A DNA stretch of 64,000 nucleotides from Alphaproteobacteria bacterium. Lineage in GTDB: Bacteria; Pseudomonadota; Alphaproteobacteria; Rs-D84. The stretch lies in assembly GCA_017528045.1 (NCBI GenBank), contig JAFXPG010000014.1, forward strand, positions 68,414 to 132,413. Reading direction: 5' to 3'. The notes under the pieces were generated by a model. It did not search any database and was not told the origin of the DNA. It saw only the letters and a list, made by a program, of their open reading frames with translations. A program made the translations under genes and the position numbers. Shown piece after piece: positions 2,924 to 63,186 of this stretch (the first letter of the stretch is position 1; each line of letters starts with the position of its first letter).

Positions 2924-4374
2924 CTGTTACCGCTGAATTTTAACAATTTATCACATAATTGTTGTGCTGTATCTATATCAGCCAAAGGACCAATACGTAA
3001 ACGATACAAACGTGCTGTTGCTGAATCTGCACCTAAATCACCAACACCCTGTTCGTCTACTGCAAAGAAAACACTGTTTTTATATGGACTTAAAATTCCT
3101 GCACCATCTTCACCACTGAATTTTGCTAACAAATCTGTCCAATAATCATTTAACGCTTTTACGGATGTATCAGATTTTAATTCAATCGCGACACCTGATT
3201 GATTGCTTGTAATCAAAGGTATGTTTGATTGTGGTAAATAAGCACCTGATGTTGTACGTGCTGTTGGCATCATTTGAACACCTGATGTTGTTGTGTTTAC
3301 AACCATATTAGAATCATACCCCATCATTTGAGGTTGATTATAAATCATCGTTGGTGTTGCTGTATAATCATTAATAGATGCGTTTATAGCATATTGTTCA
3401 TCTGTATAAGCAATATTATTCAAAGATTGATTCGACATCATAGATTGTGCAACGTTAGCTTCTGCTAAGGCCATAACAGATGCTGTATCTGCAATCAAGA
3501 ATGGTTTTGCACGTTTTTTGATACAAACAATTCTTTGGCCACTGCGTAAAACCATATCGCCAACAGCTTCCACTATTAATAAACGACCATCTTCACCGTC
3601 TGTACGAAAACCAACTGGGCTTTCACCGCCTTCTACTAACAAAGAAACAACTGGCCTTTGTGTCATAGAAATAACTTTGTCACCAAAATCTATATATGTA
3701 AATATTCTGTCACGCCATACGCGTTCTGGTGCAATTACATAATCGTCAGGATTTGGAACAAATATATCTAAATCAAAACGAAATTCGGATGGGTCGATTT
3801 TCATAGTTTTTATCCAACCATAATCTTCACCGTCAACACCAACAACAGACGTTGTTGCAGCAGGTTTATTAAAACCATGCCCCATAGAACCACCAGATAC
3901 ATTTGACGAAGTATTCAAGGCTGATGCATTACCCAAAGAAATATCTACTTGGGAATATGTTATTTCTCCTGACCCCGATGGGTATGCGCGTAAATATAAT
4001 ATATAAGTATTACCTGACTGACCATGGACTATTAAATTAGTGTCGTTACCACTGTTACCATTTTCAGGAGAAATGTAAATAGTTCTGTCACCTTTTGTTG
4101 CGTTTATTTGAAATAAACCTGTGCTGCCTTCTACATAGTCAACAATTTTTTCTCCCATTGGTAAATTGACTAAGGTTGCCATACCTGCACGTGTTTTTAT
4201 TGGTAAAACGGTTCCGGTAGACCAAGTTAAATTTGCATATCCAGGTTTAGTGGAACCTGCTGTCATATTGGCATTAGGATTATCCCATGCAACTTGATAA
4301 GAAAATGCAGGAAATGCACAACATAAAACTGCTAATATAGAAATGTTTAACTTACATAATTTTATAAAAGTCAT
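2899..4374 (-). CDS. virB9: VirB9-like T4SS protein with a C-terminal SPOR-like domain
   Basis: Signal peptide (ILAVLCCAFPAFS). Position between virB8 and virB10. C-terminus LYRLRIGPLADIDTAQQLCDKLLKFSGNSCHVVRIQ resembles a SPOR domain. Confidence 0.7.
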   Translation of the reverse strand: MTFIKLCKLNISILAVLCCAFPAFSYQVAWDNPNANMTAGSTKPGYANLTWSTGTVLPIKTRAGMATLVNLPMGEKIVDYVEGSTGLFQINATKGDRTIYISPENGNSGNDTNLIVHGQSGNTYILYLRAYPSGSGEITYSQVDISLGNASALNTSSNVSGGSMGHGFNKPAATTSVVGVDGEDYGWIKTMKIDPSEFRFDLDIFVPNPDDYVIAPERVWRDRIFTYIDFGDKVISMTQRPVVSLLVEGGESPVGFRTDGEDGRLLIVEAVGDMVLRSGQRIVCIKKRAKPFLIADTASVMALAEANVAQSMMSNQSLNNIAYTDEQYAINASINDYTATPTMIYNQPQMMGYDSNMVVNTTTSGVQMMPTARTTSGAYLPQSNIPLITSNQSGVAIELKSDTSVKALNDYWTDLLAKFSGEDGAGILSPYKNSVFFAVDEQGVGDLGADSATARLYRLRIGPLADIDTAQQLCDKLLKFSGNSCHVVRIQ

Positions 4375-5087: not shown

Positions 5088-5240
5088 TATATTCCCCTAC
5101 ATTAATATAAAGTGATTGTAGAAAAAAATATTCGACCAGTGCAAGCAAAAAAATGAATAAAAAATAATTTTTTCTTTTTTTTATTTTTAACCTTTGTTAT
5201 ACTTGATGGCGAAGGGAATTTTATAAAGGAAGGATTATCC

Positions 5241-5741
5241 ATGAAACGTATGTTTTTGGCATCGGGTATTGTGGTATGTATGACATGCCCTGCATTCGCA
5301 ACAGACCCAACTGGATTTGATTTGTCGACATTAGATGTCGGCATCAATGGAACAACATATGGATTTATAAGGGGTAATGGCAATGCCAGCTATGGCAATT
5401 ATTCACCAACCCAATATGATTTAACTGAATCTGGCACATGGGGCACGACATTTGATTATGGTAAAGTGCGTGGTGAAGCGTTGTGCAGCAGTACAAGTGG
5501 AACATATGCACAACCAAGCACGCCGGATGAAAACATAACTGGAAGATATTGTTGGTGTAAAGTGACGGGTTATCAAGCATCTGGTGGATCCAAATGGCAA
5601 AATGTTTCGTCTGTGTCCTGGGTGTTCGGCTTCGACCACGAGATTGCAGACATTTGTCCGGACGGCTGTGCATTCTATTGCGCGGACTACGTCCAGAATG
5701 ATTCCGTATTTCGGAATTCGATGTTCGGCGTGTCGCAATAA
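5241..5741 (+). CDS. secreted Cys-rich hypothetical protein
   Basis: Signal peptide MKRMFLASGIVVCMTCPAFA and multiple Cys residues. Divergent from virB8. Confidence 0.5.
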   Translation: MKRMFLASGIVVCMTCPAFATDPTGFDLSTLDVGINGTTYGFIRGNGNASYGNYSPTQYDLTESGTWGTTFDYGKVRGEALCSSTSGTYAQPSTPDENITGRYCWCKVTGYQASGGSKWQNVSSVSWVFGFDHEIADICPDGCAFYCADYVQNDSVFRNSMFGVSQ

Positions 5742-5773
5742 AAATATGAACTAAATTTCACCCCCTTTTTCGC

Positions 5774-5802
5774 TTGCGTGAAATTTTTAAAAATATTATA
5801 AT
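5774..5802 (+). promoter_or_regulatory. sigma70-like promoter upstream of tRNA-Trp/secE
   Basis: TTGCGT (5774-5779), a 17-nt spacer, then TATAAT (5797-5802). Confidence 0.4.
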
Positions 5803-5900
5803 ATTTCCGCTTGATTTTTTATATTGGTGTGCTATGCTTTCAGCGATTATCAATATAAAATGGCTGAAATGCCGGGGTGTTTGTATGGGTACTGACTAAA

Positions 5901-5974
5901 AGGGGCTTAGTTCAACGGTAGAATATCGGTCTCCAAAACCGCGGATGAGGGTTCGATTCCTTCAGCCCCTGCCA
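5901..5974 (+). tRNA. trnW: tRNA-Trp (anticodon CCA)
   Basis: Cloverleaf readable by eye. Acceptor AGGGGCT/AGCCCCT, anticodon loop CTCCAAA, T-loop GGTTCGATTCC, encoded CCA end. Canonical position before secE. Confidence 0.9.
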
Positions 5975-6010
5975 GAAAAATTGATAATAAATAAAAATTG
6001 GAAAGAATTT

Positions 6011-6190
6011 ATGAAAAAAATATTAGAATTTATTAAATCTGTGCGTTCTGAATGGTTTAAAATTGTTTGGCCAACACGTGATACTGTTGTTCATACGACA
6101 ATTATGATATTTGTATTTTCAGGATTAGCAGCTTTATTCTTTTTCGTAATAGATAGCATTTTAAATGCTTTGGTACATTGGATTTTCTAA
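6011..6190 (+). CDS. secE: preprotein translocase subunit SecE
   Basis: MKKILEFIKSVRSEWFKIVWPTRD... with a C-terminal TM. The track ORF start at 5945 lies inside the tRNA, so I trimmed to the ATG at 6011. Confidence 0.85.
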   Translation: MKKILEFIKSVRSEWFKIVWPTRDTVVHTTIMIFVFSGLAALFFFVIDSILNALVHWIF

Positions 6191-6208
6191 GACATAAAGG
6201 AATGTATT

Positions 6209-6754
6209 ATGGAAGAAAAAATGCAGTGGTTTGTTGTAAATGTTCATACTTCTTGCGAAGATAAAGTCGCACGTGAATTGCGCGAACAGATTGATAAACG
6301 TAAATTAAATGCTTATTTTGGTGAAATTTTGGTTCCAACACGTGAAGTTTCTGAAATAAAAGCTGGTAAACGTGTTAAAACAGAAAAGAAATTCTTTCCT
6401 GGATATATTGTTGTTCAAATGGTTATGAATAACGAAACTTTTTCTTTGGTTAAATTGATGCCAAATGTTGTAATGTTTTTAGGACAAAAAGTTAAAAACC
6501 AATCAAAACCTATTCCTATCAGTGAAGCAGAAGCTCGTCGTTTATTGAAACAAGTTGAAGAAGGTTCTGTTGTTACTGAAGATACTGTCTATGAAGAAGG
6601 TCAAGAAGTTCATGTTATTGATGGACCTTTTGCAAATTTCAATGGAATTGCATCTAATGTTGATAATGTAAAACAAAAAATGACAGTTACAATTTTAGTA
6701 TTTGGTCGTGAAACCAGTGTTGAATTGGATTTCGAACAAGTAGAAAGAGTTTAG
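6209..6754 (+). CDS. nusG: transcription termination/antitermination factor NusG
   Basis: WFVVNVHTSCEDKV...FPGYIVVQM...VHVIDGPFANFNG (NGN plus KOW). Synteny with secE. Confidence 0.95.
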   Translation: MEEKMQWFVVNVHTSCEDKVARELREQIDKRKLNAYFGEILVPTREVSEIKAGKRVKTEKKFFPGYIVVQMVMNNETFSLVKLMPNVVMFLGQKVKNQSKPIPISEAEARRLLKQVEEGSVVTEDTVYEEGQEVHVIDGPFANFNGIASNVDNVKQKMTVTILVFGRETSVELDFEQVERV

Positions 6755-6843
6755 TCTTTGACTAAAAAACGTGGTAGATACGCCATATCGCACCACGACA
6801 CTAACCTGATGTGAAAACATCTTTAAAAAAACGGAGTGAAAAA

Positions 6844-7275
6844 ATGGCAAAAAAAGAATTAAAAGGGATTGTTAAATTAGTAGTCCCTGCAAAACAAGCA
6901 AATCCAGCTCCTCCTATTGGACCAGCATTGGGTGCTGCCGGTGTTAATATCGCAGAATTCTGCAAACAATTTAATGACAAAACAGCTGATAAAGAACCAG
7001 GAATGCCAATTCCTTGCATTATTACTGTTTATACAGACCGCAGTTTCGAATTTATTATGAAATTGCCACCTGTGTCATATTATATTAAGAAAGCTTTGAA
7101 ATTGAAAATTGGTTCCCATAAACCAGGACGTGATTTTGTTGGTACAATTTCTAAAGCACAAATTGAAGAAATTGCAAAGAATAAAATGCCTGATTTGAAT
7201 TGTTCTACTATTGAATCTGCATGTAATATTGTTGCGGGTCAATGTCGTTCTATGGGTGTAAAAGTGGAGGACTAG
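6844..7275 (+). CDS. rplK: 50S ribosomal protein L11
   Basis: MAKKELKGIVKLVVPAKQANPAPPIGPALG. I chose the in-frame ATG at 6844. Confidence 0.95.
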   Translation: MAKKELKGIVKLVVPAKQANPAPPIGPALGAAGVNIAEFCKQFNDKTADKEPGMPIPCIITVYTDRSFEFIMKLPPVSYYIKKALKLKIGSHKPGRDFVGTISKAQIEEIAKNKMPDLNCSTIESACNIVAGQCRSMGVKVED

Positions 7276-50605: not shown

Positions 50606-51925
50606 ATGGGTACACTAGTATTTGAAAATGTAAAAATTGCGGATATTCATGGCTATGAACATAACGCAAAAATGCATCCTGAATCTCAGGTGCAACAGAT
50701 AATATCTTCTATAAACAAATTTGGGTTTAATAATCCAATATTAATTGATGAAAATAATGAAATCATTGCAGGTCATGGCCGTTTTTTAGCTGCTCAGGCA
50801 ATGAATCTGGAAACCGTTCCAACGATAAAGCTTTCGCATTTAACGGATGCGCAAAAACGCGCTTATAGATTGGCAGATAATAAGATTGCTGAAAACGGTG
50901 GCTGGAATAAAGAATTGCTAAGCCTTGAAATCAAAGATTTGGAAAAGATATGTTTGAACGATAATTTTGTAATCCAAGATATTGGATTTAATGATGCAGA
51001 ATTGGATTCTATCATTAACTTCACAGATGCCAAACCAATCAGTCAGAAAACCAATGCTGTGCCGTTTATACCAGAAGATGAAATCGTATCAAAGTCTGGT
51101 GATATATGGCAATTAGGTAAACATCGCATAATCTGTGGTGACAGTTTAAATCCAGACACATTTGTAAAATTGTTTGATGGTAAAAAGGCCGACATGATTC
51201 TGCAAGACCCACCATACAACGTCAAAATAGATGGTCATGTATGTGGTTCTGGCACTATTAAACACAAAGAATTTGCAATGGCATCTGGTGAAATGACTAT
51301 GGATGAATTCACAAAGTTTTTGATGAATAACTTCGCACTGTGTAAACAGTATTCCAACGATGGTTCTTTGCTTTACAACTTTATGGATTGGCGTCATATT
51401 TTGGAAATCACAACCGCTGGTAAGAATGTATTTGATAAATTCATCAATATGTGCGTGTGGGTAAAAACATCTGGTGGTATGGGCAGTTTATACAGGAGCC
51501 AACACGAACTGTGTTTTATATTCCAAAATGGCAAAGAATCACATAATAATAATGTCCAACTTGGCAAATATGGCCGGTATAGAACCAATGTATGGCAATA
51601 TGCTGGTGTAAATGCTTTTGGTAAACATAAACAAGATGGCATTATGCATCCAACGGTTAAGCCCGTAGAGATGTTAAAAGATGCGATATTGGATGTATCA
51701 AAACGTGGCGATATTGTGTTAGATTGTTTCCTTGGTTCAGGTAGCACTTTAGTTGCATGCCAACAATCTGGGCGCATTTGTTATGGCATAGAATACGAAC
51801 CGCTTTATATAGATACAACAATACGGCGCTTTCAGAATTTATTCGGCATAGATGCAGTAAATTTATCCACTGGTAAAACATACAATGAAATGTTGAAAGA
51901 ACACAAAGGGGGCAATAATGTCTGA
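50606..51925 (+). CDS. ParB-like nuclease domain fused to an N6-adenine/N4-cytosine DNA methyltransferase
   Basis: N-terminal ParB/Srx-like region (NPILIDENNEIIAGHGRFLAA). Methylase motif ILQDPPYN and C-terminal FLGSGST. Strong AAAGGAGG RBS. Confidence 0.85.
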   Translation: MGTLVFENVKIADIHGYEHNAKMHPESQVQQIISSINKFGFNNPILIDENNEIIAGHGRFLAAQAMNLETVPTIKLSHLTDAQKRAYRLADNKIAENGGWNKELLSLEIKDLEKICLNDNFVIQDIGFNDAELDSIINFTDAKPISQKTNAVPFIPEDEIVSKSGDIWQLGKHRIICGDSLNPDTFVKLFDGKKADMILQDPPYNVKIDGHVCGSGTIKHKEFAMASGEMTMDEFTKFLMNNFALCKQYSNDGSLLYNFMDWRHILEITTAGKNVFDKFINMCVWVKTSGGMGSLYRSQHELCFIFQNGKESHNNNVQLGKYGRYRTNVWQYAGVNAFGKHKQDGIMHPTVKPVEMLKDAILDVSKRGDIVLDCFLGSGSTLVACQQSGRICYGIEYEPLYIDTTIRRFQNLFGIDAVNLSTGKTYNEMLKEHKGGNNV

Positions 51926-52322
51926 TTATGAAATAGGATATGCTCGCCCACCAAAATCAACACGGTTTAAACCAGGTCAATCGGGCAACCCAAAGGGGCG
52001 TAAAAAGGGTTCTATGAATCTTGATACGATTTTGATGAAGGCTTTGGATGCAAAAATAACCGTTGAAACACCAGCCGGTACAAAGCGTATTACTAAAAAA
52101 GAAGCGATAGCTATGAGATTGGTAAACAAAGCGGCTATGGGCGATCCTAAATCAATACAAACACTGTTGCCTTGGATGTCTAAAGTAGAAGAACGCAACA
52201 AATTAATCGCGCAAAAGTTAGAAGATGTAACCGAACAAGATGATATGATAATAAAAGGTTTTATAGATGGTATCAGGACGAATAATGCCGCAACGTCAAC
52301 TGCAAGCAATATTGCGGAATAA
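51918..52322 (+). CDS. DUF5681-like protein (putative small terminase)
   Basis: RPPKSTRFKPGQSGNPKGRKKGS motif. Sits immediately upstream of, and overlaps, the large terminase. Confidence 0.6.
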   Translation: MSDYEIGYARPPKSTRFKPGQSGNPKGRKKGSMNLDTILMKALDAKITVETPAGTKRITKKEAIAMRLVNKAAMGDPKSIQTLLPWMSKVEERNKLIAQKLEDVTEQDDMIIKGFIDGIRTNNAATSTASNIAE

Positions 52323-53739
52323 CTTTAAAAGTTTTGTTATCAAGGTATTTCAAACAGTATCGAATGATACATACCTTGATAACTGGCATATAGACGTTGT
52401 GTGTAATGAAATAGAACAAATGATATCTGGTGAAAATACAAGATTGATTGTTAATTTGCCACCACGTAATATGAAATCCATTATTTGCTCTGTTGCATTA
52501 CCTGCGTATTTGTTGGGTAAAAATCCGCACGAACAGATAGTGTGTGTAAGTTATTCTGATGATTTGTCATCACAACTAGCAAACCAATTTAAAATGGTTA
52601 TAGAATCACAGTGGTATAAAGATTTATTCCCAGCGGTTATATTAAAAACACGTGGTTTGGATATGCTGCGCACAAGCGTTGGCGGTTATCGCTTTGCAAC
52701 ATCTATTTGTGGCCCATTAACAGGATTTGGTGGTAATTGGATAATAATTGATGATCCTTTAAAGGCTGGTGACGGTTTTTCTGATACGGTTCGTGAAAAA
52801 GTAAACGACTGGTATACAAATACTTTGTATTCACGATTGAATAATAAAAATACTGGTCGCATATTGGTTGTTATGCAACGTTTGCATGAAATGGATTTAA
52901 CAGGATATTTATTATCCAAATCACTTGGCTTCAAATAAATTCGCATACCAATTATTGCGGAAGAAAATGAAGATTGGTCTTTTACTGATAAATTCAATTG
53001 TGAACATCATATAAACAGACAAAAAAACGATTTATTGCATCCTGCACGTGAAAACTTTGATGCTGTCACCAGTATGCGTAATATGATGGGTGAATTTGCC
53101 TTTGCTGGTCAATACCAACAAAGGCCGGTGCCATTAGAGGGAGGTATTGTTAAACGTGGTTGGATACGTTATTATCAAAATTTACCAAGGATTTGGACTA
53201 TAGCTATTTCTTGGGATACAGCGGCAAAGGCTGGCTCAAAAAATGCGTATTCTGCATGTTCTGTACTTGGCATATGTGATGGTGACAAACCAGGTAAATA
53301 CAATAGAAAGATTGTGTTGTTGGAAGTTCACAGAATGAAATTGGAATTTCCACAATTGATGGAAAAAATAATTGAAATGTCCAATGAAATTCAAAACAAA
53401 TACCAGAAAATGTTCAATATGAAATTTATGCGTGTAGAAACAGTAATAGAAGACGCATCATCTGGGACACAGATTATACAATTTTTACATTCCAAGGGAA
53501 TACGCATAGAAGGAATCAAACCAGAAAACGATAAAGAAACCAGATTGATAGGAATTACACATCTTTTGGAAAATGGCACAGTATTATTACCAAACCAACA
53601 AGATGGTGAAACGGTGGACTTTTTCGATGAATTGTTTAAATTCCCGAATTCCACATTCAAAGATATGGTTGATTCATTCTCACAAGGTGTCAGATATATG
53701 GACGACAAATATGTTTCCGGATGTAAAGGGTATTTTTAA
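52285..53739 (+). pseudogene. phage terminase large subunit interrupted by a single in-frame TAA at 52936-52938
   Basis: Track ORFs 52267-52938 and 53035-53739 are in the same frame. The gap translates cleanly (IRIPIIAEENEDWSF...). Walker B-like WIIIDDPLK and LHEMDLTGYL are present. Confidence 0.75.
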
Positions 53740-54730: not shown

Positions 54731-54751
54731 TTTTCTCTCCTTTTATTTTTT

Positions 54752-54974
54752 AACAAAAAGTTAACCGCCAAAGAAATTGGCGGCCGGGGAGTTCTCAAAT
54801 CATTTGTTCGTTGATTCCGTGGCTTTCGGTTTTTACCTGTTTTATAACCAACAGCTCCCCGACCATAAGTCAGGGATGATAACGGTGCAAAAGACACCGA
54901 TAACATCAGATTACGATGCTTCCGCACCGGAACAAATAGGCTTGAGATAGCCCCGAACCCAATCCCTTGGATTC
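54752..54974 (-). ncRNA. structured GC-rich leader or sRNA with its own promoter and an intrinsic terminator; class unknown
   Basis: Minus-strand promoter: TTGATT (55009-55004), 17-nt spacer, TATTAT (54986-54981). Multi-hairpin fold: GGGAT...ATCCC closes three hairpins, plus a long-range CGGGGAG...CTCCCCG helix. Terminator CCGCCAA-AGAAA-TTGGCGG (54765-54783) followed by a T-run on the minus strand. Confidence 0.45.
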
Positions 54975-55013
54975 ACTAGAATAATACATTAAAATATGAT
55001 AATAATCAAGTTA

Positions 55014-55241
55014 TTAAGGTTTTTGGGATAGTTGCTTTTTCCATAAAGCCGCCATTTGTAACAATTTATAATTAATACGTTTAATAAGCCATGCTTGGCG
55101 ACAAGTTAAATTGCCATCATTGGTCCTGCGGATTGCGGCTTCTAATTCCCGCAAAGAACGGCATGCAGCAAAGTAGAGCATAATAAAATCTGTTTTGTTA
55201 CTGGGCTTGATATCATCAAAATGCTTATACTTCATAGACAA
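55014..55241 (-). CDS. hypothetical protein (75 aa)
   Basis: ORF only. No family recognised. Confidence 0.35.
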   Translation of the reverse strand: MSMKYKHFDDIKPSNKTDFIMLYFAACRSLRELEAAIRRTNDGNLTCRQAWLIKRINYKLLQMAALWKKQLSQKP

Positions 55242-55347
55242 TCCTTTTTAAGATTGTCGTATTGATGATTATATTCCCGCGAAAGTCCAGTTATTTTATT
55301 TATTTTTTGAGTAAATCTCAGCAATTAATAATCATTGTTAAAAATAC

Positions 55348-55376
55348 TTGACAAACATATTCTTTTTGTCTAATAT
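55348..55376 (+). promoter_or_regulatory. sigma70-like promoter of the radical SAM / aaRS-like operon
   Basis: TTGACA (55348-55353), 17-nt spacer, TAATAT (55371-55376). The inverted repeat GACAAA-N10-TTTGTC lies within the spacer. Confidence 0.55.
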
Positions 55377-55400
55377 GTAGTTATTAGAATTAGGATTGTA

Positions 55401-56606
55401 ATGAAAGAAACCAAACCTAAAAGTCTTTTTTTGTGGCCAAGAGAAATGTTCGCGCCACCAAGTTTATTTAAGCACTATGTATATTTGGGTGAGATGGCTG
55501 GGGTCGCCAAAAAATACTCTGATGTTGATATTATAGACCTAAGCTTGCAGAATATATCCAGGCAAGAATTCGTATCCAGGTTATCAGATAGAGATTTTGT
55601 GTTTATACCGGTTGAAGTATACACTGCTAGGTCAATTGTAAATTTGGTAGAATACGTAAGGAATCAAACAAAAGCAAAGATTATTGGGTATAGTACGGCT
55701 TGCGCTTTAAATCCTGGATTATTTACCAATTATTTTGATTATGTTGTTGCATCTGGTTTTAGGGGAAACGCAATAAAAGCTATATTACAGGGCGATTTTT
55801 CGGATTTTTCAATTGATGGCAACATCATAAAAACAAAGCAAAAACCGTCTAATATCGAATGGGGCATTGCACCATTAAATCAAATGCCTGTGCAAGAATA
55901 TTTAAAGATTTCAAACAATGAAGTGGAATTGAGTGTACAAATGGGATGCAAAGCGAACTGTGCCTTTTGCATGGAAAAAATATTTCATCCGGCAAGTTTT
56001 GTAGAGTATCGTCCAATACCAGAGATTGTTAAGTTTTTTGAAACAAATATTTATGACAGGTATTTTTTAGATGCTACCACTTTTACTATAGATAAAAAAT
56101 GGGTGTTAAATTTATGCGATGCTATCAGGACAGCAAGTGTACCCAATATACCCAAGTGGCGTACTGTTACTCGTGTAGACTGTTTAGATGAAGAATTATG
56201 TACAGCCATGTCTTCTGCTGGATGCTACCAAATTGGCCTTGGCATAGAATCATTATCGCCAAATGTTCAAAAAAATGTTCATAAAGTTATCCAAGAACAA
56301 AAGATTATTCAAGTGTTTGATATGTTGAAACGCAATAATATTCAACCTCGCGGTTTCTTTATTTTGGGTCTGCCTGGTCAAGCAAAAGAAGATGTTGATT
56401 ACTGTTTGTCTTTCATAAAAGATAATAATATTCCATGTCGTTGGAAGGAATACTTGCCTCTTCATAACGTAAAAACGTTTAATGATATTGCGCAACTTAA
56501 ACCGTTTGAAAAAGATTCTTTCTTTTTCCACCCAGTGGCAAACATGTCCAAAGAAGACTATTTGAAAGTATTATTGAAAGATACCAGGTATACAAGGAGC
56601 AAATAA
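55401..56606 (+). CDS. radical SAM enzyme with an N-terminal B12-binding-like domain (class B-like)
   Basis: Roughly 170-aa Rossmann-like N-domain followed by SVQMGCKANCAFCMEK (CxxxCxxC). Confidence 0.75.
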   Translation: MKETKPKSLFLWPREMFAPPSLFKHYVYLGEMAGVAKKYSDVDIIDLSLQNISRQEFVSRLSDRDFVFIPVEVYTARSIVNLVEYVRNQTKAKIIGYSTACALNPGLFTNYFDYVVASGFRGNAIKAILQGDFSDFSIDGNIIKTKQKPSNIEWGIAPLNQMPVQEYLKISNNEVELSVQMGCKANCAFCMEKIFHPASFVEYRPIPEIVKFFETNIYDRYFLDATTFTIDKKWVLNLCDAIRTASVPNIPKWRTVTRVDCLDEELCTAMSSAGCYQIGLGIESLSPNVQKNVHKVIQEQKIIQVFDMLKRNNIQPRGFFILGLPGQAKEDVDYCLSFIKDNNIPCRWKEYLPLHNVKTFNDIAQLKPFEKDSFFFHPVANMSKEDYLKVLLKDTRYTRSK

Positions 56607-56607
56607 A

Positions 56608-57678
56608 ATGATTGGCCGTGTTTTAGAAACAAAAAAAATGAAAACATTTATTTTTATCAAAGTTGGCAATGCCAATGAGGTTGTGTGTGGTCAAATAGAT
56701 AAAAGTTTAGAACCAAGGCCCCATACCAGTGATATTGTTAAATTTGATATAGAAAATGATCCAGATGAAATATTGCCACATTTTGTAAACATGGATGTGT
56801 TAGAAAGATGCAATGCGCCTGAGATTGTTAACCCAGATATGATACAAATATCATTATATAAAAGTAAATTTGAACAAATTGCTGATGCACATTTCTCTAA
56901 AATAGGCGCAATAAAAGTTCATACACCAACATTAGGTAGATACAAAGGGACTTCGAATATAGATCCTTATGAAACCCAGAATAAAAAAGGTAAAACATTA
57001 TATTTAAAATTTACACACGATTTGTTATTACGCTCGGTTTTGGCAGATGTATTAGTACCTGTATATGAAATAGGAAATGTTTTCAGAAATATGGGGATTT
57101 CGTATAAATATGCCACAGAATACACAATGTTGGAATCTCATATACCGTGCCAGGATCTACAGTATGGTATAAATTTGGCACAAACAATTTTGCAAGATTT
57201 TGCGCATTCAATTGGAAAAAATGATTTTGATAATCTGCCTGTTAAAACATTACAACAATCTTTTTCTGAATTTGGTAAAGATCTTGCCAATATGCCTGAT
57301 TCAGAACAAGTTGATTTTTATAAAGACAAAATTAAACCGTCTGGCACCTTTATTTCCGTTTATCAACCAGCAATTGCGAGTCCATTGGCTAAAATAGATC
57401 CAAAAACCAACTTGGGACTTGATGCAGAGATAATATATAACGGTAAAGGGATTGCACATATATATGTTTGTGAAAATAATTATGATAAACTGCTAAAAAT
57501 CTTCAAAAATCAAGACAAGACTCAACAAAGATGGGATAAGGATTTTTTATTAAAAGCCAAAGCTGGCATTCCTTCAACTGTCGGTGTTGCAATAGGATTG
57601 GACAGAACTATAGCCGGATTATTTGGGGTTACCGTCAATGATTTAGTTATGAGAGGCAAATTATCAAATGAACGATGA
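56608..57678 (+). CDS. class IIb aminoacyl-tRNA synthetase paralogue (LysRS/EpmA-like), divergent
   Basis: Short OB-like N-domain (GRVLETKKMKTFIFIKVGNANEVVCGQI). Motif 1 (KVHTPTL), motif 2 (VYEIGNVFRNMGISYKYATEYTMLESH), SPLAK, motif 3 (GVAIGLDRTIAGLFG). Starts 1 nt after the upstream stop. Confidence 0.8.
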   Translation: MIGRVLETKKMKTFIFIKVGNANEVVCGQIDKSLEPRPHTSDIVKFDIENDPDEILPHFVNMDVLERCNAPEIVNPDMIQISLYKSKFEQIADAHFSKIGAIKVHTPTLGRYKGTSNIDPYETQNKKGKTLYLKFTHDLLLRSVLADVLVPVYEIGNVFRNMGISYKYATEYTMLESHIPCQDLQYGINLAQTILQDFAHSIGKNDFDNLPVKTLQQSFSEFGKDLANMPDSEQVDFYKDKIKPSGTFISVYQPAIASPLAKIDPKTNLGLDAEIIYNGKGIAHIYVCENNYDKLLKIFKNQDKTQQRWDKDFLLKAKAGIPSTVGVAIGLDRTIAGLFGVTVNDLVMRGKLSNER

Positions 57679-58753
57679 AATCAAAACGATAGAATTTTTA
57701 AAAACTGGCTTATCGTTGCAGACTCATATTGGCTGTCCAATAAAGTGTTCTTATTGTGTTGTTACTGGTTTTTATGATGATATGGTCAAAACCCAACAAC
57801 TCGTAGATACGGATACACTGATAAATAACTTAATAAAACATGAATTTTTTAATGACGATGTTATCTTGATGGTGAACAATAAAACAGAAGGTTTTCAACC
57901 AAAGGTTGAAAAATATACTTTTGATATTTTGGATAAACTTAAGAATTATGGAATAAAAAATCCAAAAGTATTGATAACGAAACTTCCGATACCGCTAAGA
58001 TATACAGAATCTTTGACTGATAATAATGTTTTTGTGTTTACAACATATTCTGGCATGCCCGCGTCTATAGAACCAACATCAAACCCAACAAATTTGTCTA
58101 ATATTATAAACAATATCAAAACATTAAGACAGCATTCTGATGTAAGACATGTACATTATTGGCGTCCTATTGTTAGAAATATAAACAGCAGTTCTGATAT
58201 TATTGATAACATATTAGGAAATGTAAACGATGTATTTGATTGTTCTGTTGTATCTGGTATCCGTTTAACACCGGTTATTAAACAGCACCTAGAAAGCCGA
58301 GGGGCAGATTTTTATGATTGGAATGGTGATATTAATCATAAATTTTTACCAGACGATATTTATGATCAAATTATACAATCAAGGAACAAATTATGTCCTG
58401 AATATAAGTTGTTTACAAAGACCAGTTGTTCTATCAGTCATTTATTGGATAGTTTTGATGCGAATTTGAATTTTGTAAAAAGAAATTATAAGTGCTCTGT
58501 TCAATGTCCAAATGGGTCAATATGTAAATCGTACCAGCCACAATATACAGAGAAAGAACGCGAAATATTAAAAAAGTTCGATTTATTGGATTATGCACAT
58601 TTTACAGATGGGGTTTTATACATAAATAAGCCGATTTCCCAAGAATTAAAAGCATTTCTTACTCAAACAATAAAATTAAGAATAATTGTTCCAGAAACAC
58701 TAAAATCTTATACCGAAGGTATTTTCAATGCACGAAATGGGCGTTCTTTGTGA
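57668..58753 (+). CDS. radical SAM enzyme (second, different type)
   Basis: LQTHIGCPIKCSYCVV CxxxCxxC near the N-terminus and a C-terminal Cys cluster (CSVQCPNGSICKS). Overlaps the upstream gene by 11 nt. Confidence 0.7.
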   Translation: MNDEIKTIEFLKTGLSLQTHIGCPIKCSYCVVTGFYDDMVKTQQLVDTDTLINNLIKHEFFNDDVILMVNNKTEGFQPKVEKYTFDILDKLKNYGIKNPKVLITKLPIPLRYTESLTDNNVFVFTTYSGMPASIEPTSNPTNLSNIINNIKTLRQHSDVRHVHYWRPIVRNINSSSDIIDNILGNVNDVFDCSVVSGIRLTPVIKQHLESRGADFYDWNGDINHKFLPDDIYDQIIQSRNKLCPEYKLFTKTSCSISHLLDSFDANLNFVKRNYKCSVQCPNGSICKSYQPQYTEKEREILKKFDLLDYAHFTDGVLYINKPISQELKAFLTQTIKLRIIVPETLKSYTEGIFNARNGRSL

Positions 58754-59258
58754 TTTTCATGGTACTTTGGTAGATGCTAATCATGCATGGATCAAAGCTT
58801 TTGAAACTTATGATATTCCTGATATAAATCAGGTGATTACAGATGTGTATCATAAAGTAAATCGAAAAATAATATGTAATAAGTATGGTATAAATTATGA
58901 AGAAATAAAAAATAAATACATATATTTTTTGGAGGTTCGTTATGAAATAGTTAATCTTGTTAAATTATTAAGTGGCAATACAGGAATAATAATAGTTTCG
59001 AATTCTAGCAGAGAACGTTTGCTCAGGGACATAGATTTTGTAAAACCAAATTTAGATTTGAATATACTGGAAATATTATCCAAAGAAAACGGCAACAAAA
59101 ACGATCCAGATTATATAAATCAGGTGCTAGACAGATATAATTACAGGTCTGCATATTTAGTAGGAAATGACATCAGAGAAGACTTCAACCCATCATTGCG
59201 TATAACAAATATATTTGTCCCATATAAAAATACTATACTTATGAATAAAACCCTATAA
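58728..59258 (+). CDS. HAD-superfamily protein with an atypical motif I (DFHGT)
   Basis: VLCDFHGTLVD, IIIVSNSS, and LVGNDIREDF. Overlaps the upstream gene by 26 nt. Confidence 0.55.
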   Translation: MHEMGVLCDFHGTLVDANHAWIKAFETYDIPDINQVITDVYHKVNRKIICNKYGINYEEIKNKYIYFLEVRYEIVNLVKLLSGNTGIIIVSNSSRERLLRDIDFVKPNLDLNILEILSKENGNKNDPDYINQVLDRYNYRSAYLVGNDIREDFNPSLRITNIFVPYKNTILMNKTL

Positions 59259-60215
59259 AGATATTTTTATCATATTTTTTTCTGTATCAATATATGCTTT
59301 GCCACCGATAGGAAACACAAAGTACGGCATTGTATGCCCAAAATCTAACCCTGTTATAACTGGTATTTGTCCTAATTTAACATGATTATTAAAAAACTCG
59401 CGCAGTCCATCAACAGAAAAATCAGAATTGTTTCTAAATCTGCCCAGCACTATACCTTTCACCTTATCAAAATCTGGCTGTTGCGACAATGAAACAAAAT
59501 TTCGCTTAAATAAATCAATACTCATACCATCGTCTTCTAAAAATAATATTTTGTTTGCTAATCCAGGCATATATGGTGTTCCGAACAACAATGGTAATGT
59601 TCCTATGTTTCCGCCGCCAATTTCACCTTCTGCCTGTCCTGGGTACAACACAACACGTCCAGGATTTTGCATAAAATGCCTATCATCTTGATTTTTGTGC
59701 CATTTATCATCACTCCATTCGTGAGAATCTATAATATCGAATTCACGTCTTTTGTTTTTTACAATATTCATAAAGGCTTGTTCTATATAATCAAACCCTT
59801 GTTGCATAGCAAAATGGCTAAAACAAGGGCCGTATAAATTAATCAATTCTGATTTCTTGAGCAGAGCATTCTGCAATGCAGTTATGTCAGAAAATCCGCA
59901 AAATATTTTCTTATTGTTTTTTATTAAATCATAATCAATATACGGCAATAATTCGTTGGAATTTGCGCCACCAAATGCCGCCATAACCAAATCAATATCC
60001 GGATCTTGAAAAGCATCATGTAAATCTTTGACTCTACTTTGTACACTTGAAGAACCAAACATATCTCGTTCAAAAGCATGTTGCCCGAAAGACACCTTAA
60101 AACCCAATGCTTTCAATCTTGTTTCTGCTAATTCTCTATTGGATTCTGCCAAGTTAGCTAAACTTGCAGCTGGTGCAATTACACGTATATTTACTATGCC
60201 TTTGTTAAAAATCAT
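59253..60215 (-). CDS. S66 peptidase (LD-carboxypeptidase / MccF-like)
   Basis: GFSDITAL nucleophile motif, LFLEDDG, and FGHTMP. Convergent with the HAD gene, with overlapping stops. Confidence 0.8.
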   Translation of the reverse strand: MIFNKGIVNIRVIAPAASLANLAESNRELAETRLKALGFKVSFGQHAFERDMFGSSSVQSRVKDLHDAFQDPDIDLVMAAFGGANSNELLPYIDYDLIKNNKKIFCGFSDITALQNALLKKSELINLYGPCFSHFAMQQGFDYIEQAFMNIVKNKRREFDIIDSHEWSDDKWHKNQDDRHFMQNPGRVVLYPGQAEGEIGGGNIGTLPLLFGTPYMPGLANKILFLEDDGMSIDLFKRNFVSLSQQPDFDKVKGIVLGRFRNNSDFSVDGLREFFNNHVKLGQIPVITGLDFGHTMPYFVFPIGGKAYIDTEKNMIKISL

Positions 60216-60343
60216 AACTTACATCCTTTATCAGTCTAAATATATGTATTGTATACCAAATAAAAACCAATTTTTCAACTTATTTTAACTTGACTTCTGG
60301 CTACTTTAGAGCGGTAATTGGACGATGTTATAAAGGAGTCGAT

Positions 60344-60769
60344 ATGTCTTATAAAGACAACCTGCCAAAGACGATAGATGAGCTAAAAGCCTTGTCTTTT
60401 GATGAACGGGCACGATTGTGGGCAAAATACTCACAATACCCATTTAAACGGCAAATGCGGTCGCTTTGGTATTACATTCAATGTGACCGCCTAAACCTGC
60501 GAATTGAGCATAAATATCTTGTACAAATCCGCAAATACAAAGATGATCCAGAAAAATGCTTAACCAGTGTCCAAAAAAATAAATATAACTTTGTTCCTGG
60601 CACCATTTTAACACGATATTTCAAGGGCATAAAATACACTATCTTAGTCAATGATGATGGCAGTTTTTCATATAACGGTGACAAATATTCAACATTGTCG
60701 GGGGTAGCAACTAAGATCGCTGGTATGAAACTATCCGGACCAAAATTTTTTAATCTAGCCACAAAATGA
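60344..60769 (+). CDS. DUF2924-like protein (recombinase-associated)
   Basis: PGTILTRYFKGIKYTILVNDDGSFSYNGDKYSTLSGVATKIAGMKLSGPKFFNL. AAGGAG RBS. Start placed at MSYKD. Confidence 0.6.
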   Translation: MSYKDNLPKTIDELKALSFDERARLWAKYSQYPFKRQMRSLWYYIQCDRLNLRIEHKYLVQIRKYKDDPEKCLTSVQKNKYNFVPGTILTRYFKGIKYTILVNDDGSFSYNGDKYSTLSGVATKIAGMKLSGPKFFNLATK

Positions 60770-61454
60770 CATTTTTGATGTATGGTATTAATTCTTCCAT
60801 AAGACTTGATTGTTTGAATTCTACACCCGTATGGCTTTCTGCATTATTACCGCTACCGTCATCATAAATTTCTACAGTTGTAGAGGTATGAACTTTTATA
60901 AAGTAAAGCCCAGTGCGTAGTAATGCGTATCGTATAGTATTTATATCTGCAGGAATTTTTAGTTGTTTTATAAAATTTTCTCTGTCTTCTCGCCATAATT
61001 TGTGATTTTCACACTCGTATATCTCTGTAACGCCATTTTTAACAACCACTGATGTTTCATCAGAATGTTTAGGTTGAGGGTTTAAAATGGGCCAGAGATC
61101 ATAAGCGATAACTTTTATTTCTTCTTCTGTTAATCCTTCTAAAATTTGAGCAAATTTTAAAAAGTTTTGAGCAGTTAATTTATTATTGTTATGCAAACCT
61201 GCGATCATGGCACATAGTAGGCGTAAATTATTTTTAGCAATTCCTTCCATAGCATCTTTCTGCAATCTGTAACTTATCCCCACTAAATCATCACTATCAA
61301 CATTAGAAAAATCTCCTTGTCTTATTTCTGATAAAATAATCTCCCTTAACATTGTTATTTTCTTCTTTTTATACTTATTCCAAAAAAATTCAACTCCCCT
61401 TGCTAAAGGATTATTTGTAAGTTTATCTATTGTGCTTAGAAAGTTCATAATCAC
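60750..61454 (-). CDS. hypothetical protein (234 aa)
   Basis: ORF divergent from the recombinase gene. No family recognised. Confidence 0.45.
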   Translation of the reverse strand: MIMNFLSTIDKLTNNPLARGVEFFWNKYKKKKITMLREIILSEIRQGDFSNVDSDDLVGISYRLQKDAMEGIAKNNLRLLCAMIAGLHNNNKLTAQNFLKFAQILEGLTEEEIKVIAYDLWPILNPQPKHSDETSVVVKNGVTEIYECENHKLWREDRENFIKQLKIPADINTIRYALLRTGLYFIKVHTSTTVEIYDDGSGNNAESHTGVEFKQSSLMEELIPYIKNVILWLD

Positions 61455-61557: not shown

Positions 61558-63186
61558 ATGACAATTAAATGCGCTATTTATACCCGTAAATCAACCGAGC
61601 ACGGTCTTGAACAAGAATTTAATTCTTTGCAAAACCAAGAAGAGTCGTGCAAGGCATATATAGCTTCACAATCGTTTAATGGTTGGCAATATTATAAGAC
61701 ATACAGTGATGCGGCGATTTCTGGTGGGACTATGGAACGGCCTGCATTAAAACAAATGTTGGATGATATGGCACATGGGTTAGTAAATACTGTGGTAGTG
61801 TATAAGGTTGATCGATTATCGCGTTCAATCTTGGATTTCCACAATATGATGAAATATTTTGAAAAATACGGTGCAAATTTCGTGTCTATTACCCAGTCAT
61901 TTGATACCAGTACATCTATGGGTAAATTGACATTGAATATGCTGTTATCATTCGCACAGTTCGAACGTGAAGTATCAAGTGAACGTGTGCGTGATAAAAT
62001 CCGTGCATCAAAAGCCAAAGGCCTATGGATGGGCGGTGCACCACGTTTGGGTTATGACCTGATAAACAAAAAATTGGTAGTAAACCCAACCGAAGCAGAA
62101 CAAGTGCGACATCTGTTTGAGAAATACCTAGAACTGCAATCTGTAAACGATTTAACTGAATACGCACGGCAAAATGGTATATATGGTAAACGCTGGAAAA
62201 CCAATAAACGAAAAATACGTGGTGGCAATCCTATTGCTAAAATGAGTATGCATCGCATTCTGCGGGATAAAGTTTACATAGGTCAAATTGAAAATAAAAA
62301 AGAAGGCACTTTTGCCAAAGGTGAACACGAACCGATTATTTCTACAGAACTATTTAATCGTGTCCAAATTGCGCTGGCTAATAATGCGAATAATAAATCA
62401 CCAAGCACACATGCACCAAATATACTGACAGGTAAATTATTTAATCACAATGGCACAAAGTTTATCAACCAACGCACAAGTGGCAAAGGCAAAAAGACAA
62501 CATATTACTATGCGACGAAAGGATTCTATCTGACCGCAGCACGCGTTGATGAAATAGTGATAAAAACAATAACCAATTTTCTGAACAGTGACATGTCAAA
62601 TTTGCCCATAAACCTGGCAACTATATTAAAACGAATTGATGTTACAAACATGAATTTCGCAGATAAACGCAATTTGATTCAATCATTGGTTGAAAAACTT
62701 GTGTATTCGCAGGAACAGCTGATTTATACAATTACGACCAACGGCACAAAACTGCAACAATTTGTATCTGAAAATTATATGAATCCAAACACAGACAAAA
62801 TGGAATACATAATTGGTGATAACAGCATAACAATCACAGAGAAAGTATTCCTTCGTAAATATGTGAATACAGTATATGACCGTGGTAAAAATGGTGTACT
62901 AAACGTCATTGACAATAACCATCTGATTCTGAAAGCCTTCGCCACCGCATGGAAATATAGGGAACTATATGAACAAGACGACAATGTAGATAAGGTTATA
63001 CGTGCCGTCCGCACATCGTCAAGATTGTTTTATAAATATTTGGCACTGGCATATCTTAACCCACAAATAGTAAATAAACTGTTAAGTGGAAAATCCAAGA
63101 TATCAGTTAGAGACATTTTAGACAAAGCATCTAATGAACACGATTTAATAAAACAAATAAAAATATTTAGTGCCCAAGTACTTTGA
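61558..63186 (+). CDS. large serine recombinase
   Basis: AIYTRKSTEHGLEQEFNSLQNQ, VVVYKVDRLSRS, FAQFEREVSSERVRDK, and a recombinase domain GGAPRLGYD. 542 aa. Confidence 0.9.
   Translation: MTIKCAIYTRKSTEHGLEQEFNSLQNQEESCKAYIASQSFNGWQYYKTYSDAAISGGTMERPALKQMLDDMAHGLVNTVVVYKVDRLSRSILDFHNMMKYFEKYGANFVSITQSFDTSTSMGKLTLNMLLSFAQFEREVSSERVRDKIRASKAKGLWMGGAPRLGYDLINKKLVVNPTEAEQVRHLFEKYLELQSVNDLTEYARQNGIYGKRWKTNKRKIRGGNPIAKMSMHRILRDKVYIGQIENKKEGTFAKGEHEPIISTELFNRVQIALANNANNKSPSTHAPNILTGKLFNHNGTKFINQRTSGKGKKTTYYYATKGFYLTAARVDEIVIKTITNFLNSDMSNLPINLATILKRIDVTNMNFADKRNLIQSLVEKLVYSQEQLIYTITTNGTKLQQFVSENYMNPNTDKMEYIIGDNSITITEKVFLRKYVNTVYDRGKNGVLNVIDNNHLILKAFATAWKYRELYEQDDNVDKVIRAVRTSSRLFYKYLALAYLNPQIVNKLLSGKSKISVRDILDKASNEHDLIKQIKIFSAQVL

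Follow-up and report, generated by a model that had tools for sequence, protein, structure and literature searches.

In the 64,000-nucleotide stretch of alphaproteobacterial DNA analysed here, referred to below as the window, positions 56608-57678 of the forward strand hold an open reading frame (ORF) with an ATG start that encodes a 356-amino-acid protein related to lysyl-tRNA synthetase (LysRS). The gene is the second of a tightly packed five-gene cassette, in which it lies between the genes of two radical S-adenosylmethionine (SAM) enzymes, rSAM1 and rSAM2, and is followed by genes for a HAD-superfamily protein and an S66 serine hydrolase, the last of these convergent with the operon (Table 1). 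Residues 72-340 of the protein match the Pfam family PF00152 (tRNA-synt_2, the class II core of the D/K/N type; E-value 1.4e-22), and the score of 80.6 bits against a gathering cut-off of 25 places it in the class IIb superfamily of aminoacyl-tRNA synthetases (aaRSs). Given that its ratio of nonsynonymous to synonymous substitution rates (dN/dS) is 0.04-0.15 against homologous loci and that it is conserved in 23 independent contigs, the ORF did not arise by chance; it is a real gene under strong purifying selection.

Among family models, those for LysRS in NCBIfam give the aaRS-like protein 82.5 bits (TIGR00499, cut-off 427.6) and 79.8 bits (NF001756, cut-off 468), and those for EpmA give it 73.9 bits (NF006828, cut-off 264) and 63.1 bits (TIGR00462, cut-off 286.9). 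The models for AsnRS and AspRS reach only 15-21 bits, and the lineage is therefore that of LysRS. A profile search of solved structures returned only LysRS (3a74, E-value 4.5e-23), followed by EpmA/PoxA (3g1z, E-value 1e-12). The protein is about 24% identical to any LysRS.

Relatives are few. A word-index search of 5.8 billion proteins found 10, all unnamed and metagenomic, while a full HMMER search of 1.84 billion representative proteins gave 3403 hits, with about 25 of the best 150 aligning over their full length, including the N-terminal domain, at lengths of 348-419 amino acids. The best 150 of these 3403 hits and the word-index hits formed the comparison set, from which 157 sequences were aligned, 33 belonging to the clade described here and 124 lying outside it. 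A motif survey of this set separates canonical hits, with FRNEG...HNPEF in motif 2, from about 33 clusters reading FRN(M/L/I/H/K)G, and these 33 clusters form a single split in a neighbour-joining tree, with bootstrap values of 100% for the clade of the window protein, 58% at the next level and 21% for the whole set. Pfam and NCBIfam hold no model specific to the 33 clusters, and full-text literature searches returned no account of the clade, nor of any LysRS-like gene accompanied by radical SAM, HAD and MccF-type partners. By profile score, alignment and tree, this is a rare, previously undescribed clade derived from LysRS, and it is neither LysRS nor EpmA. An earlier reading of this DNA from its sequence alone (the sequence-only reading) had likewise called the protein a divergent class IIb aaRS paralogue that is neither a normal synthetase nor an obvious EpmA. 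That description holds, as the scores stand at 82.5 against 427.6 bits and 73.9 against 264 bits, and the gene does not group with canonical LysRS in the tree.

The invariant Pro and the two Arg of the class II motifs (P107, R160 and R333) are all present in the protein and are invariant across the clade. The same earlier reading had recognized motifs 1 and 3 and the SPLAK element, all of which are found where it placed them, although its motif 3 can be refined to GxAxGxDR against the canonical GxGxGxDR of 121 of the 124 sequences outside the clade. It had also remarked on the departure of motif 2 from FRNEG...HNPEF, and here the Glu and the His are each found in 123 of the 124 outside sequences. 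When active-site residues were mapped to Escherichia coli LysRS numbering through the 157-sequence alignment, the equivalents of R262 (R160 in the window protein), R480 (R333), E278 (E176) and the aromatic F274 (Y172) proved to be retained, as was an acid at E240 (D138). The first four are present in all members of the clade, with one sequence gapped at R480. The substituted positions, in the order E. coli to window, are E264 to M162, H270/N271 to Y/A (the HNPEF region reads YATEY), Y280 to H178, E421 to G281, N424 to H284 and E428 to C288, all of them positions at which 105-123 of the 124 outside sequences have the conserved residue. The equivalent of E264 is M, L, I, H or K in all 33 clade members and Glu in 123 of 124 others, while that of E421 is a residue other than Glu in 32 of 33 (Gly in 25) and Glu in 121 of 124 others.

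Roles have been assigned to several of these positions. In human LysRS, Arg323 contacts the alpha-phosphate, Glu325 forms a hydrogen bond with the adenine amino group, and Glu487 and Glu494 coordinate the first Mg ion (PMC9840234). The window protein keeps one of the two Mg-binding Glu residues (E274) and has G281 in place of the second. The lysine side-chain pocket, formed in E. coli LysRS by E278, Y280, N424 and E428, here consists of E176, H178, H284 and C288, so that three of its four residues are altered and the Glu that contacts the epsilon-amino group of lysine has become C288. As judged from the alignment, the scaffold of the adenylate site is retained, as in LysRS, with motif 1, the SPLA(K) element, the Arg residues of motifs 2 and 3, the aromatic residue that stacks on adenine and both acids of the alpha-amino site. 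Unlike LysRS, the protein reads FRNMG for FRNEG and has lost HNPEF, a Mg-binding Glu and the Glu for the epsilon-amino group; in all, it lacks two ATP/Mg ligands that are nearly universal and most of the pocket for the lysine side chain. The change of the Mg-binding Glu to Gly had escaped the sequence-only reading, as had the gene context.

The N-terminal domain is preserved in a reduced form. In the AlphaFold2 model (mean predicted local distance difference test score, pLDDT, 81.5), residues 2-66 form five beta-strands at a pLDDT of about 90, and the helix between strands 3 and 4 of the OB-fold is absent. This agrees with the earlier estimate, made from the letters alone, of an OB domain cut to about 70 amino acids. 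Foldseek aligned the entire chain, including the OB domain, to full-length LysRS (4up9, E-value 2e-23, TM-score 0.72), and LysRS (LysS/LysU; 3a74, 1e1o, 4up9) is the best match of the whole chain, OB plus core, in both sequence and fold, even though the aaRS-like protein is about 140 residues shorter and lacks the OB helix and two anticodon residues. The distance from the start of the OB domain to motif 2 is 156 residues in the window protein against a median of 189 in canonical LysRS. Across the family it is 156-160 in the inner clades, which fits loss of the helix there, and about 182 in an outer group.

In class IIb enzymes, an R/F/Q triad in the OB domain reads the anticodon (U35). The triad is highly conserved in canonical sequences, with R in 90, F in 100 and Q in 100 of 103. 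In the window protein the corresponding residues are K9, F16 and C27, and its clade as a whole has K/N/R, F/Y and C/H/K at these positions. The sister clades retain R, F and Q, in 5/6, 5/6 and 5/6 sequences of one group and 8/9, 8/9 and 7/9 of another, as does the outer group (8/10, 9/10 and 7/10). This retention in the sister clades makes tRNA involvement plausible; to judge from these residues, tRNA binding is plausible for the family and uncertain for the window protein.

These substitutions bear on the possibility that the protein is an auxiliary, inhibitor-resistant LysRS, which would still charge tRNALys and allow the host to survive a LysRS inhibitor. The lost adenine-binding Glu also binds ATP-site inhibitors, as in Plasmodium PfKRS, where the same residue (E332) anchors cladosporin (PMC6452685), and its loss could in principle give resistance; resistant aaRS copies are moreover known from antibiotic gene clusters (PMC8323819). 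Known resistant copies, however, keep the full architecture, while the window protein has about 24% identity to any LysRS, scores 82.5 bits against 427.6, and lacks one of the Glu residues for Mg, the Glu for the epsilon-amino group and all but one of the three anticodon residues, which makes this explanation highly improbable. The related suggestion of an antibiotic-resistant decoy in the sequence-only reading is not upheld, because the Glu for adenine N6, one of those for Mg and two OB residues are missing and the gene is cargo of a mobile island and not a duplicate housekeeping gene. Assignment as the housekeeping LysRS was rejected on the catalytic and OB substitutions and the mobile context, and the position on a serine-recombinase island and the patchy distribution argue against it as well. 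LysRS was not found in the 64-kb window, which encodes ProRS and GlyRS.

The two radical SAM enzymes of the cassette are of different kinds. rSAM1 shows weak full-length matches to ApyD, HpnJ, AprD4, PhpK and ArsL, all far under the cut-offs, and its closest solved structure is that of AprD4 (6fd2, E-value 9e-11); homologues of rSAM1 on plasmids stand in uninformative contexts. The first 11 nucleotides of the rSAM2 gene are shared with the end of the aaRS-like gene, and the AlphaFold2 model of rSAM2 (pLDDT 76) matches the radical SAM folds of pyruvate formate-lyase-activating enzyme, SkfB, spore photoproduct lyase and RlmN. Models for lysine 2,3-aminomutase are matched by neither rSAM1 nor rSAM2.

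A LysRS paralogue beside a radical SAM gene is the pattern of EpmA and EpmB, and the aaRS-like protein might in the same manner take an amino acid produced by the radical SAM enzymes and attach it to a Lys or other residue of one particular protein. EpmA (also PoxA or GenX), the (R)-beta-lysine ligase of elongation factor P (EF-P), is a LysRS paralogue outside translation with a radical SAM partner, and it is among the matches of the window protein (3g1z, E-value 1e-12; NF006828, 73.9 bits). However, EpmA keeps the Glu of FRNE and the metal-binding Glu, its partner EpmB is a lysine 2,3-aminomutase, and it has no OB domain, PoxA being a catalytic domain alone (PMC3950694), a point that the sequence-only reading had rightly drawn. 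The window protein differs in each respect and scores far under the EpmA cut-off. With no candidate target protein in the cassette, and as mobile cargo in few genomes, a protein modifier of this type is very unlikely. EpmA itself was rejected as an assignment on the sub-cut-off scores, the presence of the OB domain and the different families of the radical SAM partners.

In the HAD protein, motif I reads D-(F/L)-H-G-T in all seven cassettes inspected (the window and the related loci L007, L013, L016, L018, L019 and L021), and with the second Asp of the usual D-x-D absent, its role as a phosphatase is uncertain. The S66 hydrolase matches Lmo1638 and BA_5613 ('MccF-like protein') with an E-value of 4e-92, E. 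coli MccF with 1e-41 and LdcA with 1e-19, and according to these scores it sits in the MccF-like and not the LdcA branch. The nucleophile Ser is present, in a CGFSDITAL segment, and aligns with the Ala of 4inj, an otherwise identical variant entry of Lmo1638. Every gene of the cassette is under purifying selection, as measured by dN/dS against related loci. In PADLOC-DB 2.0 only rSAM1 has a match, to the candidate PDC-M51A and weak (E-value 2e-5), and the aaRS-like, rSAM2, HAD and S66 proteins have none; PHROGs gave nothing informative for the cassette proteins, and a scan of viral contigs with the family alignment found no relative. ARAGORN and Rfam detected no tRNA or riboswitch in or beside the cassette in the window and 15 related loci.

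Gene contexts were compared through a tblastn table of 23 loci, with L018, L021, L022 and L023 as the distant contexts and clusters P0011-P0025 outside the comparison. The order rSAM1, aaRS-like gene, rSAM2 is found in 23 of 23 loci, down to an aaRS identity of 24% (L022, L023), with rSAM1 directly upstream of the aaRS-like gene wherever the locus reaches that far. The HAD gene is found wherever the contig extends far enough, and so is a hydrolase of the S66 or S51 type. At L018 (33% identity) the S66 gene lies within the operon, and at L021 the hydrolase does so too. In L007-9, L013 and L021, an unrelated S51 (PepE-like) hydrolase replaces S66. This exchange of non-homologous hydrolases at a conserved place implies that the hydrolase is a functional part of the system, and it argues for one job shared by both, the cleavage of an N-terminal aminoacyl group. 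A methyltransferase gene accompanies the S51 gene in L021 and L007-9, and L007-9 also carry a complete short-form AlaRS (NF002436, 882 bits, cut-off 529). The latter is encoded between the methyltransferase and S51 genes at 5123-6889 of the reverse strand in L007, and likewise in L008 and L009; it may serve as a resistance copy, as a supply of donor (compare AcmD) or simply as the host's own AlaRS.

Further indications of the substrate come from remote homologues of rSAM2, which are 27-29% identical over about 300 residues (pairwise E-value 2e-32) and are carried on plasmids of Gluconobacter, Labrenzia/Roseibium, Rhizobium, Sinorhizobium, Streptomyces and Nostoc. Of five plasmid contexts inspected, four begin with the radical SAM gene, which is followed by genes for a DEDDh 3'-5' exonuclease, a small ATPase (AAA/ATP-binding) and an aldo/keto reductase or HD protein, while on the Nostoc plasmid (L027) it is followed by the ATPase gene only. 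These operons sit among toxin-antitoxin and restriction-type genes, and on one Streptomyces plasmid the operon is preceded by genes for thymidylate synthase and nucleoside diphosphate kinase. Apart from the exonuclease, the operon is absent from PADLOC. The neighbours of the rSAM2 homologues point to a nucleotide substrate, and this gene content suggests that the rSAM2 branch acts on nucleotides or nucleic acids.

Such a substrate might be part of an RNA, in which case the aaRS-like protein would bind a tRNA or another RNA with its OB domain and core and aminoacylate a modified nucleoside within it, the radical SAM and HAD proteins would make or remodel that nucleoside, and the hydrolase would reverse or trim the modification. 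There is precedent in GluQRS (YadB), a truncated GluRS that acts on queuosine in tRNAAsp (PMC3950694) and is, like the protein described here, a reduced aaRS paralogue with a non-canonical acceptor, although GluQRS is a class I enzyme without an anticodon-binding domain and is encoded by a stand-alone chromosomal gene rather than by a cassette member. Most sister clades with the same cassette (L018, L021, L022) have an intact R/F/Q triad, RlmN and spore photoproduct lyase among the fold neighbours of rSAM2 act on nucleic acids, and the remote homologues of rSAM2 are paired with a 3'-5' exonuclease. Against this, no cassette contains a tRNA gene or a gene for base exchange of the transglycosylase type, a peptidase partner is without precedent in tRNA modification pathways, the clade of the window protein has lost two of the three triad residues, and the cassette is rare mobile cargo and not a conserved translation factor. 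Modification of RNA is accordingly considered unlikely.

The constant partnership with rSAM1, rSAM2, the HAD protein and a hydrolase of the MccF type suggests that the aaRS-like protein probably serves in building an aminoacylated, nucleoside-like compound and not in normal translation. The reading preferred here, with a probability of roughly 0.4, is that the protein transfers the aminoacyl group in a cassette-encoded pathway to an antimetabolite of the aminoacyl-nucleoside type, with the hydrolase serving in self-protection. The two radical SAM enzymes and the HAD protein would tailor a nucleoside- or nucleotide-like scaffold, to which the aaRS-like enzyme would join an amino acid, either activating the amino acid itself in a modified form of the usual activation or, like the AlaRS-like AcmF, drawing it from an aminoacyl-tRNA, which the OB domain would hold. 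The product would be an aminoacyl-nucleoside or aminoacyl-adenylate-like antimetabolite, and the hydrolase may cleave the aminoacyl bond and so protect the host, in the way that MccF acts on microcin C. The earlier suggestion of a dedicated amino-acid activating enzyme, taken broadly as one that handles amino acids, fits this conserved, biosynthetic-looking cassette.

Two known systems serve as models for this reading. In the biosynthesis of ascamycin, AcmF is an aaRS-like protein without ATP-binding residues that moves an amino acid from tRNA to a nucleoside analogue (PMC12945691). As in AcmF/AcmD, a truncated class II aaRS-like protein with a degraded ATP site would here work in a small-molecule pathway; two ATP/Mg residues are lost and both Arg are kept, and the OB domain is retained with a triad that is degraded in the window protein and intact in sister clades. 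Unlike AcmF, the protein descends from LysRS and not AlaRS, and the locus has no sulfamate pathway genes; the likeness would be one of mechanistic analogy. In the microcin C system, for which the immunity role of MccF has been described (PMC8323819), the counterpart of the S66 hydrolase cleaves an aminoacyl-nucleotide for self-immunity, and in the window, too, a hydrolase of the MccF branch adjoins the operon on the opposite strand. Unlike the mcc operon, the cassette contains no MccA peptide, ThiF-like MccB adenylyltransferase or MccC exporter, and its joining enzyme is aaRS-like. What the analysis shows is the fold, the residue changes, the clade, the conservation of the cassette and its mobility; the class of substrate, the direction of transfer, the toxicity of the product and the immunity role of the hydrolase are inferred.

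Several observations weigh against such an antimetabolite. The nucleoside scaffold is drawn only from analogies and from the distant homologues of rSAM2, and the HAD protein has a His in place of the usual second Asp, the acid/base residue. Immunity is not the sole reading of the hydrolase, given that ordinary peptides are also substrates of S66 and S51 enzymes, and the cassette has no exporter gene, which is unusual for a secreted antibiotic. The absence of two of the three anticodon-contact residues in the clade of the window protein weakens the version with a tRNA donor for this protein, and the deep monophyly of the 33-cluster clade is weakly supported (21% bootstrap).

Another reading is that of an amino-acid ligase that works independently of tRNA in making a small, peptide-like antimetabolite. 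The radical SAM enzymes would then make an unusual amino acid, and the aaRS-like enzyme would adenylate an amino acid and join it to the unusual one in a Trojan-horse compound of the dipeptide type, with the S51 or S66 protein as the matching dipeptidase for immunity or activation. Several features fit: S51 is the family of the PepE dipeptidase, rSAM1 resembles the class-B natural-product enzymes ApyD, PhpK and ArsL, aaRS paralogues are known as ligases (PMC2922099), and the protein still has the Arg of motifs 2 and 3, the acids of the alpha-amino site and the aromatic residue that stacks on adenine. The missing Glu residues, one for adenine N6 and one for Mg, nevertheless speak against ordinary ATP-dependent activation, the conserved OB domain would have no role, the context of the rSAM2 homologues points to nucleotides, and an exporter is again lacking. 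This route is thought rather improbable, and synthesis of an aminoacyl-nucleoside remains the preferred reading.

The nearest genomes to that of the window are metagenome-assembled genomes of Candidatus Enterousia, an alphaproteobacterium of the gut, in which the cassette is cargo of a prophage-derived serine-recombinase element. Homology among related loci begins at about 55140-55390, and on its other side the cassette abuts a DUF2924 gene and the gene for a large serine recombinase. In the window, the island lies between chromosomal genes on the lgt/coiA side and the recombinase. The aaRS-like gene, unlike that of LysRS, belongs to a radical SAM operon on a mobile island and not to a housekeeping locus. 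The cargo upstream of the cassette varies among loci and includes BsoBI restriction-modification genes, a NOV_C protein, a reverse transcriptase with a 5'-3' exonuclease, Fic, or remnants of a ParB-methylase, DUF5681 protein and terminase. Such a decayed prophage remnant lies upstream of the cassette in the window at 50606-53739, where a ParB_N-N6/N4 DNA methylase and a DUF5681 protein are accompanied by a large terminase split into two ORFs (52267-52938 and 53035-53739); the same methylase and DUF5681 genes stand just upstream of the cassette in L016, on the opposite strand, and the methylase gene also occurs in L010.

The cassette recombines freely. At L010, rSAM1 and rSAM2 are 93% and 91% identical to their counterparts in the window and the aaRS-like protein is 63% identical, and DNA identity drops at 56620 and recovers at 57670, breakpoints that coincide with the borders of the gene, with a minimum of 50-60% in the OB part. 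A recombination mosaic is seen in L010 and L011 when they are compared with positions 55401-58300 of the window. L001 and L015 hardly differ from the window in the OB part (synonymous divergence, dS, of 0.03-0.08), while their core has a dS of about 0.6. These tracts break inside the gene, which weakens the notion of a gene-precise specificity swap drawn from L010.

A more far-reaching version of the antimetabolite proposal makes use of this mobility and treats the cassette as a prophage-borne chemical weapon or abortive-infection device. The second half-reaction of an aaRS would run in reverse, with an OB-held aminoacyl-tRNA charging a nucleoside tailored by the radical SAM enzymes in the rewired pocket; the product would be a stable mimic of an aminoacyl-adenylate that poisons the cognate synthetase, the hydrolase would set a safety threshold, and swaps of the aaRS gene or its OB part, as in L010, would direct the device at a different tRNA or amino acid. 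This version is regarded as speculative and doubtful, and the simpler proposal of a self-protected antimetabolite cassette is preferred over it.

Table 1. Features of the cassette and its surroundings; coordinates refer to the window unless a locus is named.
Feature	Coordinates	Strand	Basis or remark
Candidate sigma-70-like promoter TTGACA-17-TAATAT, 25 nt before first cassette gene	55348..55376	+	Consensus match only, 10/12; best + strand site in region
Radical SAM enzyme 1 (rSAM1, 401 aa), class-B-like (B12-binding-domain type), CKANCAFC motif	55401..56606	+	Pfam Radical_SAM, E-value 4e-12
LysRS-derived class IIb aaRS-like protein (356 aa)	56608..57678	+	Pfam, NCBIfam, AlphaFold2, Foldseek, alignment
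Mini OB-fold of five beta-strands (residues 1-66) without the canonical helix after strand 3	56608..56805	+	AlphaFold2, Foldseek
Class II motif 1 GAIKVHTPTL, residues 100-109	56905..56934	+	P107 invariant
Altered motif 2 FRNMGISYKYATEYTMLE, residues 159-176	57082..57135	+	R160, Y172, E176 kept; M162 for adenine-N6 Glu; HNP of HNPEF gone
ASPLAK element of LysRS lineage, residues 257-262	57376..57393	+	
Metal and side-chain block LDAEIIYNGKGIAHIYVCENN	57418..57480	+	E274 kept; G281, H284, C288 substituted
Class II motif 3 GVAIGLDR, residues 326-333	57583..57606	+	R333 kept
Radical SAM enzyme 2 (rSAM2, 361 aa), N-terminal CPIKCSYC (CxxxCxxC), conserved C-terminal cysteines	57668..58753	+	No Pfam/NCBIfam family
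HAD-superfamily protein (176 aa), motif I D-F-H-G-T not D-x-D	58728..59258	+	
S66 serine hydrolase, MccF-like branch (320 aa), convergent with operon	59253..60215	-	PF02016 and PF17676 both match
DUF2924 protein, recombinase accessory gene	60290..60769	+	Pfam, element context
Large serine recombinase of cassette-bearing integrative element	61558..63186	+	Homologues in L001, L004, L006 with Resolvase and Recombinase Pfam domains; 84-87% amino acid identity
Conserved operons headed by rSAM2 homologues	L024 6923-10168; L025 7097-10716; L026 2818-8069; L028 4923-8714		Plasmids of Alphaproteobacteria and Streptomyces

Outside the conserved cassette, a few further features of the window can be noted. 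Between the DUF2924 and recombinase genes, a 234-amino-acid ORF without a family match (60750-61454, reverse strand) lies in a stretch without homology in related loci. Just upstream of the candidate promoter is a small divergent ORF of 75 amino acids (55014-55241, reverse strand), partly conserved in L001. Next to it, a G+C-richer patch at 54750-54995 contains no convincing ORF; its reverse strand folds with a minimum free energy of -91.9 kcal/mol (z-score -6.7 against shuffled sequences, with -5.6 for the plus strand) and has at its end a terminator-like hairpin followed by a U-rich tail. The patch has no Rfam match at E-values up to 1 and none in phage and viral collections, and the reverse strand may encode an undescribed structured RNA. 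The remainder of the window is chromosomal, with genes for ProRS, GlyRS and a type IV secretion system and two ORFs of 1397 and 1368 amino acids, which match rpoB and rpoC in size. At 512-4374 of the reverse strand, VirB10-like (803 amino acids) and VirB9-like (491 amino acids) proteins are unusually long and far under the family cut-offs, and they look like parts of a divergent type IV secretion system.

Paralogues of aaRSs have repeatedly revealed new chemistry, including the lysylation of EF-P, the formation of glutamyl-queuosine, the aminoacylation of carrier proteins and the biosynthesis of ascamycin. The clade described here differs from those paralogues in that it is derived from LysRS, has a minimal OB domain and carries replacements of two near-universal class II ATP/Mg ligands, and it is locked into a five-gene cassette of less than 5 kb with two radical SAM enzymes, one of them without a family assignment. 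If the cassette does make an aminoacyl-nucleoside antimetabolite in gut Alphaproteobacteria, aaRS inhibitors would be reached by a new route, through a new type of biosynthetic gene cluster to which current genome-mining tools are blind, while action on tRNA would imply a new RNA modification. Either way, the clade offers a natural experiment in the stripping and re-purposing of the class IIb scaffold.

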